A stretch of DNA of 39,610 nucleotides from Negativicutes bacterium (GTDB lineage: Bacteria > Bacillota > Negativicutes > JAGOZY01), in contig JAGOHU010000002.1 in the NCBI GenBank assembly GCA_017995975.1, forward strand, positions 1 to 39,610, in the 5' to 3' direction. Shown one piece after another: positions 3,719 to 28,938 of this stretch. The position numbers were made by a program, and so were the translations under genes. Each line of letters begins with the position of its first letter. Position 1 is the first letter of the stretch. The notes under the pieces are model-generated. The model saw only the letters and a program-made list of their open reading frames with translations. It was not told the DNA's origin and searched no databases.

Positions 3719-4357
3719 TTATTTGACAGAGACAAGGGCGCCACCTAGCAAGGTAGTTTGGTACCAACTTTTGAAGTCAATTTCAAATAGCAGGCCGTTA
3801 TCAATAATTGTTGCCCAGCCATTTTTGTCGGACAAATCCTGGTATCCGACTATTGTAACCCAATGCCAAGAGTCTAAGTTTTTTAAATCGCCATTGGAAT
3901 AGTTTAAAAAGGCAATGGGATTTTTTGCTTCTAATTCATCTTTCAAGAACATTTCTACTTGTTCCCAAGGCATTTTTTCTGCCCATTGGTATGAAATATC
4001 TAGTATGCCAGTTTGTAGGGAAAGATTGTGGGATTTTCCGTAATTTTGTATTCCCCTAGAAAAATCGGAAAAAGAGTAAAGTCCAAGCCGCTTTGGGGTC
4101 ACAAAAGTCCATATTTTTTCCATCATTTGTTGATAGTCAGTTCCTGTATAATTTGGGCTTTCCCAAAGAGGTGCATAGTTTGGATGGACTTGGGAGAGAT
4201 ATGCCAAAATGTTTGTTGCGGTTGTGGGGCCACAACCAGCTTTGCGGTGAAAATTGGAACTAAGAAACCAATCCTGGTCAGCGCCCCAAGAAGGATCGGT
4301 ATTTGTTAAATTTGTTGTGGAAAAATAGTCTAAATTTGGTAAGGAGAATTTTGTCAT
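3719..4357 (-). CDS. Hypothetical papain-fold (C39-like) cysteine peptidase family protein
   Basis: The ORF was trimmed to the internal ATG at 4357, which lies 10 nt after the upstream stop. A candidate Cys nucleophile sits in AGCGPTTATNILAYL and a His in DSWHWVTIVGY, followed by IIDNG. There is no signal peptide. Confidence 0.5.
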   Translation of the reverse strand: MTKFSLPNLDYFSTTNLTNTDPSWGADQDWFLSSNFHRKAGCGPTTATNILAYLSQVHPNYAPLWESPNYTGTDYQQMMEKIWTFVTPKRLGLYSFSDFSRGIQNYGKSHNLSLQTGILDISYQWAEKMPWEQVEMFLKDELEAKNPIAFLNYSNGDLKNLDSWHWVTIVGYQDLSDKNGWATIIDNGLLFEIDFKSWYQTTLLGGALVSVK

Positions 4358-24972: not shown

Positions 24973-25557
24973 ATGAAATATCAAATGGGAATTCCGGATG
25001 AAGACTTTATCCGGGGTGGAATTCCGATGACCAAAAGAGAAGTTCGTATTTCGGTGTTGGCAGAAGCGAATATTAAAGAGGATAGCAAGATTTTGGATGT
25101 AGGAGCTGGTACTGGATCCATATCGATTGAGGCCGCATTGCTTGCGCCAAAAGGCAAAGTATGGGCCATTGAGAAAGAAGCAGAAGGAATCGACTTGATT
25201 CGCCAAAATAGTGAAAAGTTTGGTGTGGAAAATCTGATTTCGATTGAGGGACTTGCGCCAGATGCAATGAGCCAGGTTTCCGAAGAGTTGGATGCAGTTA
25301 TTATTGGAGGAACTGGTGGTAGTTTGGAAGATATTTTGGATGAAAGCGGAAAGCTTCTGAAATCTGGCGGCAAAATTGTTGTCACCGCAGTTACTACCGG
25401 AACGGCAGATCGAGCAGCTCGCTACTTTATCGATCATAAAGAAGAATATGATTTTTGGGGCTATCAAGCTGCTTATACCCGATTGCGTCCAGTTGCAAAG
25501 CATTTTCTGTTTCAAGCCTTGAATCCAGTGTATTTATTGGTAGGAACTAAAAGATGA
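24973..25557 (+). CDS. cbiT: Cobalt-precorrin-6B C15-methyltransferase (decarboxylating) CbiT
   Basis: The N-terminus GIPDEDFIRGGIPMTKREVR and the SAM motif ILDVGAGTGSISIEAA match CbiT. It starts 1 nt after the cbiE stop. Confidence 0.85.
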   Translation: MKYQMGIPDEDFIRGGIPMTKREVRISVLAEANIKEDSKILDVGAGTGSISIEAALLAPKGKVWAIEKEAEGIDLIRQNSEKFGVENLISIEGLAPDAMSQVSEELDAVIIGGTGGSLEDILDESGKLLKSGGKIVVTAVTTGTADRAARYFIDHKEEYDFWGYQAAYTRLRPVAKHFLFQALNPVYLLVGTKR

Positions 25558-25636
25558 AAACGATCTTATGTAACTAAAAAAACCGATTGTCTAACTAAAA
25601 AAAACAATTTTACTCTTGGAAATGAGTTTTTTTTGT

Positions 25637-25665
25637 TTGAAATAACTACCGAAAAAGCGTACACT
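25637..25665 (+). promoter_or_regulatory. Candidate sigma-A promoter of the decarboxylase/carrier operon
   Basis: TTGAAA (25637-25642), a 17-nt spacer, then TACACT (25660-25665). Confidence 0.4.
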
Positions 25666-25671
25666 ATGGGC

Positions 25672-26006
25672 AGTAGCCTGCTTTAAAAAGTAGTAAGAAA
25701 AATCCCTACTATATGTGAGACTTTTTCACAATAGAGAGATAGCTTGCCAAAGCAGCGAAATGGGTACCCAATACTTATCAGTAGGAGGTGAAATGTAGGC
25801 CTTACTAAAAAGAGGGCAGAACCAGGTTGTAAAATCGAAGCCTCAGACCGGGTGAAATGGTATTCCTCCGGTGATGTTTCGAGGGCGGCCATGGAGGATG
25901 TCGTGGGCGAAAGCAATTGTTTCGTTTTTATTTTAGTGCCCGCTTCCAGAGCGCAAGCGAAAAAATTCACTAGAAATCAGGTCAACTGATTTACTACACG
26001 AGGAGG
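25672..26006 (+). promoter_or_regulatory. Long structured 5' leader, a candidate riboswitch or attenuator of unrecognised class
   Basis: About 335 nt without a credible ORF. Features are several local hairpins, three GAAATG(G) motifs (25757, 25789, 25854), a weak hairpin plus T-run at 25908-25934, and a hairpin at 25974-25992 next to the RBS. Confidence 0.4.
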
Positions 26007-26012
26007 ATGACA

Positions 26013-27215
26013 ATGGACTTATCTATTTTTGCATCGTTACAAGACGAGCTACTTATGGGCGTTAATGGAGTGATTGCAAACCCATTGGTTATGGTTATGT
26101 GGGCAATTGGGGCATTACTTATTTATCTAGCGGTATGGAAAGACTATGAACCGACACTACTTTTGCCAATGGGTGTTGGGGCAATTATTGCAAACATCCC
26201 TGGATCTATTGCGGCAATCGCAGTGGTTCACGACAGTGGCCAAGCTGAGGTTGGTTGGTTGAGACTTTTATATGATTTGGGAATTGCAACTGAATTATTC
26301 CCAGTTTTAATTTTTATTGCGATTGGTGCAATGTGTGATTTCGGACCATTAATGCAAAATCCGAAAGTAATGCTTTTTGCAGCAGCAGCACAATTTGGTA
26401 TCTTTGCTACCGCAGTAGCAGCAGCAGCACTTGGGTTTTCCATTTGGGAATCCGCAGCAATCGGGATTATTGGCGCTGCTGATGGTCCTTCAACCATCTT
26501 TGTAGGTAATAAATTTGCGAAGAATATGATTGCTCCTTTGTCAGTAGCGGCTTATTGCTATATGGCATTGGTACCAGTTATTCAACCGCCAGTTATTAAA
26601 GCGATTACTAGTTCAGAAGAACGTAAAATTCGAATGGACTTTACCGAACAAGCACCGATTTCACAACGGGCAAAATTTATTTTCCCTATTATGATTATTA
26701 TGGTGGCTGGTATTATTGCTCCAATCTCTGTAGCATTGATTGGTGCTTTGATGTTCGGAAACATCTTGAAAGAATCAAATGTAGTTCCAAGCTTGGCACG
26801 TTGTGCTGAAGGCGAACTATCCAACTTAGTTACTTTGTTCCTCGGAATTACTGTTGGAGCAACAATGACTGTGGGAGATTTTTTGACAGTGGATGTAATT
26901 AAAATCATGGCTTTGGGAGCAGTTGCTTTCGTATTTGACACTGTCGGTGGAGTTCTTTTTGCTAAAGTAATGAATCTATTTAGTAAAGAGAAAGTCAACC
27001 CAATGATTGGGGCTTGTGGAATTTCTGCTTTCCCAATGTCCGGTCGTGTTATTGCTAAGATGGCTTTGAAAGAAGACCCAACAAACTTTATCATTCAACA
27101 AGCTATTGGTGTAAACGTAGCAGGTCAAGTCGCTTCAGTAGTAGCAGCTGGTGTCGTTTTGGCTCTAGTTCCTGCATTAGCGAAAATGTTCGGCTTTGCC
27201 GGACCATTGATGTAA
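26013..27215 (+). CDS. Sodium ion-translocating decarboxylase beta subunit (OadB/GcdB/MmdB family)
   Basis: Polytopic ORF with the family motifs IIGAADGPSTIFV and NPMIGACGISAFPMSGRV. The ATG at 26013 is preferred on spacing from GGAGG. Confidence 0.85.
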   Translation: MDLSIFASLQDELLMGVNGVIANPLVMVMWAIGALLIYLAVWKDYEPTLLLPMGVGAIIANIPGSIAAIAVVHDSGQAEVGWLRLLYDLGIATELFPVLIFIAIGAMCDFGPLMQNPKVMLFAAAAQFGIFATAVAAAALGFSIWESAAIGIIGAADGPSTIFVGNKFAKNMIAPLSVAAYCYMALVPVIQPPVIKAITSSEERKIRMDFTEQAPISQRAKFIFPIMIIMVAGIIAPISVALIGALMFGNILKESNVVPSLARCAEGELSNLVTLFLGITVGATMTVGDFLTVDVIKIMALGAVAFVFDTVGGVLFAKVMNLFSKEKVNPMIGACGISAFPMSGRVIAKMALKEDPTNFIIQQAIGVNVAGQVASVVAAGVVLALVPALAKMFGFAGPLM

Positions 27216-27233
27216 GGGAAGGGAGAGGTTAAT

Positions 27234-27377
27234 ATGAATCCAGTTGTAGAAGCTGCCTTTATTATGATGGTGATTGCAGTACCACTTATGTTTATCGTTA
27301 TTGGAATTTTTATTGGACTGACTAAGATGTTGGTAAGTTTGTTACCACCAACAGCAGAGGAATTGGAAGACAACTAG
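27234..27377 (+). CDS. Small single-TM protein, OadG-like decarboxylase gamma subunit (not in the supplied ORF track)
   Basis: 47-aa ORF MNPVVEAAFIMMVIAVPLMFIVIGIFIGLTKMLVSLLPPTAEELEDN with a GGGAGAGG RBS, 18 nt after the beta subunit stop. Confidence 0.6.
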   Translation: MNPVVEAAFIMMVIAVPLMFIVIGIFIGLTKMLVSLLPPTAEELEDN

Positions 27378-27498
27378 TTTGTAAATGAAAATCGGCTGGA
27401 ATATTAATTAAGTTAGCATTCCGGCCGATAATTTCAAAAATAGGGTTATCTGAATGTTCAAAAATCAGAATATTCGAAAATTGAAAGGGGAAAAAATC

Positions 27499-28938
27499 AT
27501 GGAAGCTTTATCCGCGATTAGTCCAGCCGCTTGGGCATCAATTATTGCACTTTTAATTGTTGTTGTTATTTCATGTATTAATGAAGATTTGAATGTAGGG
27601 ATTTTATCAATTGCTTTTGCATTGATTGTGGGTAGCATTTTTGCTCCCGAAATTTTGAAATCGATTAATTTAGAATTAGCTGCAAAGAAGTTACCACTTC
27701 TTAAAGCATATAACGGAAAAACCATTATGGGATCCTTTCCTGTAGATTTATTTATGATTTTAGCTGGGGTAACCTTCTTATTCGGGATTGCTCAGACAAA
27801 TGGCACTATGGAAAAACTGACAGCTTATGCAGTGCGAATGGCTAAAGGAAATAACGCATTGATTCCAGTGATTGTTTATGTAGTTACTACAGTTTTGACA
27901 ACCATTGGGCCTGGTAACATTGCAGCAACAGCGTTACTTGCTCCAGTGATGATGGCCATTGCTACTCGAGTGGGGATGTCAGCATTTTTAATGACTCTTT
28001 TGGTAGTAGGAGCATCTAATGGTGCGGCATTCTCTCCTTTTGCTCCAACTGGAATTATTTCAAATGGAATTATCGCTAAAATGGCCGAAGAACTAGGGAT
28101 TGCTTCGACTTCTTTAGGTGGTCTTGCTTGGAAAATTCATTTTAACTCCATGTTGGCTCAAGGGATTGTCAATATTGGCGGATTTTTAATTTTTGGTGGT
28201 TGGGCATGGATTGCAGCACAAAAAGGTAAAACTGTAAATATTGATGAATTAGCACCAAAACCAGCGGCTTTTGATCGAAATCAAATGCTGACAATCGGTG
28301 CAGTTGCCTTGTTGATTTTAATGGTTGTACTCCCAGGTTTACCAATCTTTAAAGGTGTATTTCCAAAGTGGTTCTTAAGTATGGCAATTAACGTTGGTTC
28401 GGTAGCATTTATTCTGTCGGGCTTCCTCTTACTCTTCAGTGCTGGAGACAGCAAAGCGGCTATTAAAGCAATGCCTTGGGGCGTTATGATGATGGTTTGT
28501 GGAGTGACTGTATTGATTGATGTAATGGACAAATCTGGTGGTTTGAACGCATTAGTCAAAATGATTGGTTCGATTTCTGGACCAACCACAGTTAATTTCT
28601 GGCTTGGATTGATTCCAGGAGCCATTTCGGCTTACTCCAGTTCTTCTGGGGTAGTTATGCCAATGTTCTTGCCAATGGTACCTGGTTTGATTGAAGAAAT
28701 TGGAATTCCTGCTGCTGATCGAACTCAAGCTGCTTTAGCAATGATTTCTTCGATTGATGTAGGATCTCATTTAGTTGATACTTCACCGCTCTCTACTTTA
28801 GGAGCACTTTGTATTGCTTCTGCTGGTGAGAACGAAGACAAAGGAAAGCTCTTCAAAACATTATTGATTTGGGGCCTTTCGATGGCTGCTGTCAGCGGTA
28901 TTATTTGTTACATCTTGTTCGGACTTTTAGGATTCTAA
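27499..28938 (+). CDS. Ion-transporter-superfamily anion permease (MatC/dicarboxylate-carrier-like)
   Basis: 479-aa polytopic ORF from the ATG behind AAAGGGGA. The N-terminal region resembles the MatC-type dicarboxylate carrier fold, with two-fold repeated hairpin-like segments. Confidence 0.55.
   Translation: MEALSAISPAAWASIIALLIVVVISCINEDLNVGILSIAFALIVGSIFAPEILKSINLELAAKKLPLLKAYNGKTIMGSFPVDLFMILAGVTFLFGIAQTNGTMEKLTAYAVRMAKGNNALIPVIVYVVTTVLTTIGPGNIAATALLAPVMMAIATRVGMSAFLMTLLVVGASNGAAFSPFAPTGIISNGIIAKMAEELGIASTSLGGLAWKIHFNSMLAQGIVNIGGFLIFGGWAWIAAQKGKTVNIDELAPKPAAFDRNQMLTIGAVALLILMVVLPGLPIFKGVFPKWFLSMAINVGSVAFILSGFLLLFSAGDSKAAIKAMPWGVMMMVCGVTVLIDVMDKSGGLNALVKMIGSISGPTTVNFWLGLIPGAISAYSSSSGVVMPMFLPMVPGLIEEIGIPAADRTQAALAMISSIDVGSHLVDTSPLSTLGALCIASAGENEDKGKLFKTLLIWGLSMAAVSGIICYILFGLLGF

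Follow-up and report, generated by a model that had tools for sequence, protein, structure and literature searches.

A candidate cis-regulatory hairpin RNA in the leader of a detached Na+-pump beta subunit and carboxylate carrier cassette of Negativicutes

How is a Na+-pump beta subunit controlled when it stands detached, together with a carboxylate carrier, behind several hundred nucleotides (nt) of DNA with no evident gene? The question is raised by a stretch of 39,610 nt (hereafter the window), which is contig C105 of a Negativicutes metagenome-assembled genome (MAG) of 1.72 Mb and 78% completeness (G000), placed among uncultured members of the class by matches to its OadB protein. Here the open reading frame (ORF) of cbiT stops at 25557, and a gap of 449 nt separates it from 26007, where the next long ORF has its first ATG. 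An initial annotation had given this size correctly and had seen no credible ORF in the gap, and indeed only two small ones are found, of 95 amino acids (aa) on the minus strand (25683-25970) and of 45 aa on the plus strand, neither with a Pfam match. Beyond the gap lies a cassette of an oadB-like beta subunit, a 47-aa membrane peptide and a MatC/CitMHS-like carrier. The gap had been read as a cis-regulatory RNA, possibly a riboswitch. Our analysis indicates that the first part of this proposal has substance, with a conserved core that has the same fold in three lineages, precedes always the same cassette and lies outside the catalogued classes, while a riboswitch in the strict sense, binding a ligand, is possible but doubtful. 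We give about an even chance to positions 25776-25905 being a conserved cis-acting leader RNA of the cassette that works through an anti-Shine-Dalgarno segment at the apex of its hairpin.

The comparison rests on three independent lineages: the window, a locus (L004; G001:C69:8334-8484) of G001, the sole other species in this order of Negativicutes, from a different genus, and a lineage represented by two metagenome contigs (L083 and L084). When the whole leader was used as an nhmmer query, only positions 25787-25913 of the window aligned, matching L004:3756-3884, L083:802-955 and L084:3498-3645. The conserved block (25776-25905) makes up the middle third of the gap. The first ~110 nt and the last ~100 nt of the leader could not be aligned among the relatives, and the same was true of a control spacer, namely the non-coding DNA that lies between the 47-aa ORF and the MatC-like gene. 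The OadB proteins of the motif-bearing relatives are only 75-80% identical and yet the core is alignable, with pairwise identities of 52-57% over the motif model. It also differs in composition, with a GC content of 0.51 over 25800-25949 vs 0.24-0.40 in the flanks. A covariance model of the motif (R1) scores 141 bits over 25776-25928. In all three lineages the motif is located directly upstream of the oadB-like/47-aa/MatC-like cassette and on the same strand. The genes on the other side vary (cbiT in the window, a LysR regulator in G001, other ORFs in L084), indicating that the element travels with the cassette.

Model R1 found one copy in each of the two genomes G000 and G001, that is, in both species of the order, and none in the rest of G000, in 150 genomes of the class or in 150 genomes of the phylum. 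A degenerate IUPAC pattern was present in 2 of 401 class genomes, which were again G000 and G001. The searched genomes are samples, and the result is that the motif was not found in those, which does not imply its absence elsewhere. Scans for the beta subunit in species genomes and metagenomes gave two kinds of loci: ordinary mmdB/gcdB genes located after a biotin-carrier gene, with at most 72% identity, and stand-alone genes with 73-80% identity (L003-L007, L083 and L084), each with a long upstream spacer. Further orthologs of the oadB-like protein were detected at 98%, 87%, 86% and 80% identity, those at 98% on more than 200 contigs. The concern that the region might not be conserved upstream of orthologs is therefore answered differently by distance: the closest orthologs keep the core, and the leaders of the distant Acidaminococcales paralogs (L003, L005-L007) match the motif neither by R1 nor by nhmmer. 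The two Acidaminococcales MAGs to which these four loci belong each carry at least two beta/small-peptide/MatC-like cassettes with unrelated leaders, and L003 and L006 share a conserved upstream region of their own (nhmmer E 5e-20) that may include the start of a divergent gene. A shared TTCGAG...GGAGGG.TG in L005 and L007 was considered as homology and dropped, as its topology differs. Less sensitive comparisons gave nothing of use; BLAST of the whole leader against the DNA of 40 relatives returned only a 37-nt AT-rich match at chance level, and a MAFFT alignment of six upstream regions was uninformative. Judged from these comparisons, the element would represent a new and very rare candidate family of structured cis-regulatory leaders, restricted to one clade.

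Folding the three lineages together with RNAalifold gave one long irregular hairpin with a small hairpin on its 5' side, at 38 pairs and -18.05 kcal/mol on the plus strand. The reverse strand gave 20 scattered pairs and -5.6 kcal/mol, so the fold is specific for the plus strand, because many of its pairs are G-U. The positions of the helices are collected in Table 1 with the other features of the region. The long hairpin stacks four helices (P1-P4), and between them lie conserved internal loops, AGAA opposite GGAGGA and UGUGA/UAAAA opposite AAAGC/GGGC; a K-turn or loop-E reading of the loop between P2 and P3 was tried by eye and abandoned since the consensus does not fit. The Shine-Dalgarno-like sequence GGAGGAUGUC near the base of the hairpin is kept in L004 and reads GGCGAAUGUC in L083. 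Folded singly, the cores showed the same nested architecture, with z scores of -2.97 (window, 25812-25905), -3.54 (L004) and -0.65 (L083). In the alignment 87.5% of the cells were paired vs 42-50% when the partners were slid by 1-3 columns, a comparison in which the structure derives from the same three lineages. Six pairs change on both sides, a number reached by 6 of 500 shuffles, again with three lineages and a structure taken from the same sequences. We regard this covariation, coming from three lineages only, as suggestive support for the fold. L083 and L084 differ at four places, which are in the flank, in loops, or in a U-U that has become a U-G. An alternative 5' hairpin can also be drawn (GCCUU/AGGGC in the window, GCCUU/AAGGC in L083 and ACCCU/AGGGU in L004), in which we see two compensatory pairs by eye, in a register that differs.

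Table 1. Features of the leader and its surroundings (window coordinates)
Feature	Coordinates	Strand	Basis or remark
Intergenic leader, cbiT to oadB-like gene	25558..26012	+	ORF list
Promoter-like TTGAAA-17-TACACT, candidate	25637..25665	+	9/12 positions match; unconserved in relatives
Conserved RNA motif: small 5' hairpin, then long irregular hairpin	25776..25905	+	nhmmer, model R1, consensus fold
P1, GGCA with UGUC (25899-25902)	25815..25818	+	G-C, G-U/A-U, C-G and A-U kept in all three lineages
P2, 5' strand, with partners 25885-25890 and 25892-25894	25822..25830	+	Consensus and single folds; imperfect in L083
P3, UCGAAGC with GUUUCGA (25876-25882)	25835..25841	+	UCGA/UCGA core invariant
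Apical P4/P5 stem-loop	25843..25874	+	L004 rebuilds the helix with another sequence (CUGUUAG/CUAAUAG)
Candidate anti-Shine-Dalgarno segment GUAUUCCUCC, hairpin apex	25860..25869	+	Best duplex partner of the Shine-Dalgarno region in the leader, -14.0 kcal/mol
Shine-Dalgarno-like GGAGGAUGUC	25893..25902	+	GGAGG in P1/P2 internal loop, UGUC is the 3' strand of P1; near copy of the true Shine-Dalgarno region
U-run hairpin, no conserved terminator	25903..25943	+	-11.4 kcal/mol, z -1.8
7-bp hairpin abutting the ribosome-binding site	25974..25992	+	Sequence unconserved; analogous hairpin in L004 and L083
Shine-Dalgarno region GGAGGAUGAC and probable start ATG 26013	26002..26015	+	Read from the sequence; context common to orthologs
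Cassette: oadB-like beta subunit (to 27215), 47-aa membrane peptide (27234-27377), MatC/CitMHS-like carrier	26013..28938	+	Pfam and NCBIfam matches

The feature that gives this hairpin a possible function is its apex, which carries a pyrimidine-rich 10-mer. We looked at the Shine-Dalgarno (SD) region of the oadB-like gene, whose true start is almost certainly the ATG at 26013 and not the 26007 of the ORF list, because GGAGG (26002-26006) sits 6 nt before it; the context AGGAGGATGAMAATGGA (AGGAGGAUGAMAAUGGA) recurs at the start site of all orthologs. In each of the three leaders the best upstream partner of the SD region was the apical segment: GUAUUCCUCC with GGAGGAUGAC in the window (10 of 100 shuffles reach its energy), GUCAUCUUCU with GGAGGAUGAC in L083 (-15.2 kcal/mol, reached by 1 of 100) and GUUAUCUUCU with GGAGGAUAAC in L004 (-13.2 kcal/mol, reached by 4 of 100). 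The L083 and L004 duplexes have 10 contiguous pairs each and differ by a compensatory change from C:G to U:A. The one of the window keeps the outer G-C and U-A and has two G-U replaced by G-C, with a mismatch of 2 nt. Only the motif-bearing genes have the AC to which the GU of the apex pairs, and the four motif-less paralogs read GAAAAUGG or GUAUAAUGG instead. In the leaders of these four paralogs the best partner of the SD reached only -8.2 to -9.5 kcal/mol, worse than the shuffled means. The distance from apex to SD is 135-165 nt.

These pairings suggest that the hairpin most likely acts as an on/off switch for translation of the operon. In the folded hairpin the apical stem takes in part of the anti-SD, from which we infer that the folded hairpin would be the ON state and the duplex of apex and SD the OFF state. 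The leader would thus toggle between two states. With the hairpin fully formed, the anti-SD would be held in the apical stem, the ribosome-binding site would remain free and the operon would be on; with the apex open, the anti-SD would pair with the SD region, initiation would be blocked and the operon would be off. A factor bound at the conserved internal loops would set the balance. The minimum free energy folds of the full leaders show both arrangements, the window and L004 keeping the hairpin with a free SD and L083 pairing the SD with the apex.

Several observations weigh against this interpretation. The anti-SD/SD duplex of the window, besides being equaled in energy by a tenth of its shuffles, is interrupted by an internal mismatch of 2 nt, and CU-rich stretches in general pair with an SD. 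The two partners are more than 130 nt apart, with non-conserved hairpins in between, and neither a conserved terminator nor another canonical expression platform was found. The L083 core is no more stable than its shuffles, and its P2 has two mismatches. The covariation is thin, coming from three independent lineages in which most pairs of P1 and P3 never vary, and the fold was tested on the very sequences from which it was derived. Finally, searches of 150 class genomes by model, 400 by pattern, and 150 genomes of the phylum found the motif in one small order only. Some of these facts could be explained by a leader that is structured and does not switch, such as an mRNA-stabilizing 5' hairpin, a processing site or a ribosome standby site; the predicted ground state of the window and L004, with hairpin formed and SD free, is what such a leader would show, and neither a conserved terminator nor an alternative helix is evident. 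However, this would leave unexplained both the conserved sequences of the internal loops and the 10-nt complementarity between apex and SD region, with its compensatory change, and we consider it rather improbable.

Conserved internal loops, on the other hand, typify protein sites no less than aptamers. The hairpin might therefore be the site of a trans-acting protein or small RNA (sRNA), for example a CsrA-like GGA binder, an antiterminator or a CU- or GA-rich sRNA, that alters the access to the SD or the stability of the mRNA. SD-like GGAGG occurs at 25783-25788, at 25893-25897 and in the ribosome-binding site, and the very narrow distribution of the motif fits a lineage-specific factor. Nevertheless the central GGAGG is GGCGA in L083, so that a GGA binder would not be consistently served, no protein-binding leader of Rfam matches and the cassette encodes no candidate regulator. 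We see such a partner in place of a small ligand as unlikely.

It could also be argued that the conserved block has nothing to do with the cassette and just happens to lie upstream of it, as an independent sRNA gene or as what is left of a gene for a small protein. Open frames of 102 aa in L083 and 70 aa in L004 do run across the motif, and in the window a promoter-like site and a weak U-run hairpin bracket ~260 nt. However, the window has TAA and TGA in the frame of these two ORFs, the L083/L004 alignment changes frame within the conserved ATGTC block, the differences are spread evenly over the codon positions (19/50, 21/46 and 21/49) and neither frame has a Pfam match. On these four counts we rejected a coding function for the motif, and with it the explanation of the region by a small protein, which the initial annotation had named as a possible refutation. 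Against an independent sRNA stand the lack of the U-run hairpin in the relatives and the fact that in three contexts the motif stays linked to the cassette and keeps its orientation. Both versions together have very little probability.

Conservation at the level of DNA has a similarly slight probability. In this case a LysR-type or two-component regulator of the cassette would have its operator in the invariant TCGAA...TTCGA arms, and the surroundings of these cassettes do contain such proteins. In G001 a LysR-family regulator (HTH_1 and LysR_substrate; L004:2537-3508, plus strand, contig C69) lies between cbiT and the conserved leader, directly upstream of the latter. G000 has a second detached cassette (L167; contig C14:2601-6683, minus strand), with an OAD_beta protein of 387 aa followed by a CitMHS/Na_sulph_symp carrier of 431 aa, an ORF-free spacer of ~480 nt before it and, further upstream, a DpiA-like response regulator and a histidine-kinase fragment. 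This sister cassette thus sits behind a two-component system of the CitA/DpiA type, and its spacer has no match to R1. The invariant UCGA/UCGA arms are palindromic, so that by themselves they carry no RNA-specific signal. What speaks against an operator is that the conserved block extends over ~130 nt, downstream of the promoter candidates, that the fold is strand-specific through its G-U pairs, that the arms are 39-46 bp apart, unlike those of a dimeric operator, and that G000 has no ortholog of the G001 LysR protein (the best match, L179, is 27% identical and located elsewhere).

The protein sensors found at the sister cassettes indicate that cassettes of this kind seem to be induced by metabolites. 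If the leader RNA is the sensor here, our guess for the trigger is most likely a small ligand acting as in a riboswitch-like ON switch, namely the carboxylate substrate of the cassette or Na+. We name these two because sister cassettes are under carboxylate-type protein sensors and because Na+ riboswitches occur upstream of decarboxylase pumps. One trait generally expected of a riboswitch is present here, namely a domain in the 5' leader that is structured, conserved and on the same strand as the coding sequence it precedes. The most specific version of the idea, that the hairpin serves as aptamer in a riboswitch of a new class, which switches on the detached Na+-pump/carboxylate-carrier cassette in response to a di- or tricarboxylate substrate (of the succinate, malonate or citrate type) or to Na+, is put forward as a tentative proposal that we rate as improbable in its entirety. 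To our knowledge no dicarboxylate-sensing riboswitch has been validated, and if true this one would be the first. If the element is a switch, it would show how an uncultured Negativicutes lineage controls a detached module of Na+-pumping beta subunit and carboxylate carrier, it would add a new and very rare class of RNA sensor, possibly for a carboxylate, and at this locus control by RNA could be compared directly with control by protein for one kind of module. As a purely structural leader the element would be of local interest.

Most of the pairings listed in the initial annotation fall outside the conserved core, and its promoter, hairpins and repeats, taken by themselves, do not exceed what chance would give. 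The sequences are there. AGTAGG (25780-25785), CCTTACT (25800-25806), TCCTCC (25864-25869), GGAGGA (25893-25898), the hairpin with U-run (25908-25934) and the 7-bp hairpin had been placed correctly, and AGTAGTAAG (25689-25697), CCCTACT (25704-25710) and the second GGTGAAATG (25851-25859) lie one position from where they had been put. The promoter described as good does exist as a sequence and is no better than chance, as a promoter scan found one site vs 1.3 expected in shuffles. The fold of the whole leader barely beats its shuffles (z -1.9 on the plus and -1.7 on the minus strand). Conservation in the relatives was not found for the alternative pairing partners at 25689-25710, the GAAATG repeats, the U-run hairpin or the sequence of the hairpin next to the ribosome-binding site. 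One of the listed pairings, TCCTCC with GGAGGA, does point to a real feature, since TCCTCC belongs to the anti-SD segment. Premature termination near 25935 had also been proposed; a terminator scan called none in the region, L004 and L083 have no U-run at the place that corresponds to 25908-25934, and a GC-rich hairpin with U-run conserved between sensor and gene, as in an intrinsic-terminator attenuator, was not seen. As the U-run hairpin has no counterpart in the relatives, transcription attenuation is not the conserved mechanism. Leader peptides or start-stop ORFs (AGGAGG-N4-ATG-TAG at 25783-25798; GTG at 25903) were discarded for not being conserved in L004 or L083.

Two other sequences of the leader were observed along the way. 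A box of the form (T)GCTTTAT(C/T)..AGTA appears just 5' of the motif in the window (25770-25783, ATACTTATCAGTA), in L004 (~3720-3745) and in L083 (~770-790), and L005 and L007, two Acidaminococcales leaders that lack the motif, have the same GCTTTAT box. It could be an operator; another possibility is an extended -10, in which case transcription would start right at the motif. Besides, an AT-rich hairpin with a T-run located after cbiT (25599-25634, AAAAAACAATTTTACTCTTGGAAATGAGTTTTTTTT) is 86% identical over 37 nt (E 4.6e-4) to L002 (G024:C5:440188-440224), in a distant genome of the same class, which may reflect chance or a shared type of terminator.

As for the cassette itself, the beta subunit matches OAD_beta / Na_pump_decarbB and the carrier matches MatC_N/CitMHS. 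The carrier probably starts at ATG 27499, the start in the ORF list (region 27454-27501) probably being too early, because the similarity among orthologs begins at the ATG after GAAAGGGG. The trio of beta subunit, 47-aa peptide and carrier is kept as a unit in every close ortholog locus (L003-L007 and L083), and the spacer between the 47-aa ORF and the carrier is ~490 nt in L083 (2393-2870) vs ~120 nt in the window. Beyond the carrier the window encodes a ChaA/CaCA-like antiporter, a DUF5058 protein, a 228-aa protein without assignment, an amidase and an Orr-like racemase.

We have compared the leader with the known RNA families using Rfam 15 (4227 models). At gathering scores the only match in the whole window was the cobalamin riboswitch RF00174 (22183-22368, plus strand, 93.8 bits), which precedes cbiL-cbiD-cbiE-cbiT. 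The cassette adjoins B12 genes in both G000 and G001, an adjacency that would fit a B12-dependent succinate-to-propionate metabolism. A permissive cmscan of 25500-26100 (E<=10) gave five chance-level sRNA or microRNA matches on the AT-rich flanks and no Na+, Li+, ydaO, T-box, cobalamin, FMN, SAM, glycine, lysine, M-box, ldh2 or other riboswitch family. The earlier statement that no recognized class fits is thus supported, and the classes suggested as candidates, DUF1646 (Na+), nhaA-I (Li+) and ydaO, were not recovered; over the whole genome the Na+ model RF03071 reached at best 18 bits, on another contig, vs a gathering score of 40.5. A search of the literature found no described motif for this gene context.

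Riboswitches that act on translation by sequestering the SD are well known, as in the thiM thiamine pyrophosphate, SAM-II and preQ1-II classes. The proposed mechanism resembles theirs in that an anti-SD within the sensor fold would compete with the ribosome for the SD, and differs in the position of the anti-SD, which here is at the apex and 135-165 nt upstream, in a fold that matches none of those classes. Among the ion sensors, nhaA-I is an extended hairpin with conserved internal loops, as is the present motif. The Li+ riboswitches (nhaA-I and Li+-II; PMC9646797) are, like our element, leaders of cation-transporter genes; however, there is no Rfam match at E<=10, and in place of nhaA the genes downstream encode a decarboxylase beta subunit and a carboxylate carrier. 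Genes for oxaloacetate decarboxylase Na+ pumps are occasionally preceded by Na+-I riboswitches, which activate expression when bound (PMC9337991), and both these riboswitches and our motif are leader RNAs of cis-regulatory type located before genes of sodium biology. The Na+-I riboswitches are built of two extended stems, with the conserved nucleotides clustered at the P1 base and in the P2 loop (PMC9337991), an architecture that the consensus fold does not show, and their Rfam model has 55 positions, whereas here ~130 nt form a single long hairpin with a small variable 5' hairpin. A highly diverged Na+-I/DUF1646 or Li+-I/II riboswitch would suit the gene context. Given this difference in architecture and the Rfam searches, with no relevant match in the leader and the best RF03071 score elsewhere in the genome, we find it scarcely credible. 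A further parallel is the ldh2 motif of Negativicutes, one of the narrowly distributed orphan candidates from single-genome surveys of intergenic regions, with a three-stem junction upstream of Ldh_2 genes and 34 representatives (PMC8632094). The present element differs from it in its unbranched long hairpin, its three known lineages and the lack of an Rfam match. What both share is comparative evidence only, a distribution restricted to a class or order and a location upstream of genes for carboxylate metabolism or transport.

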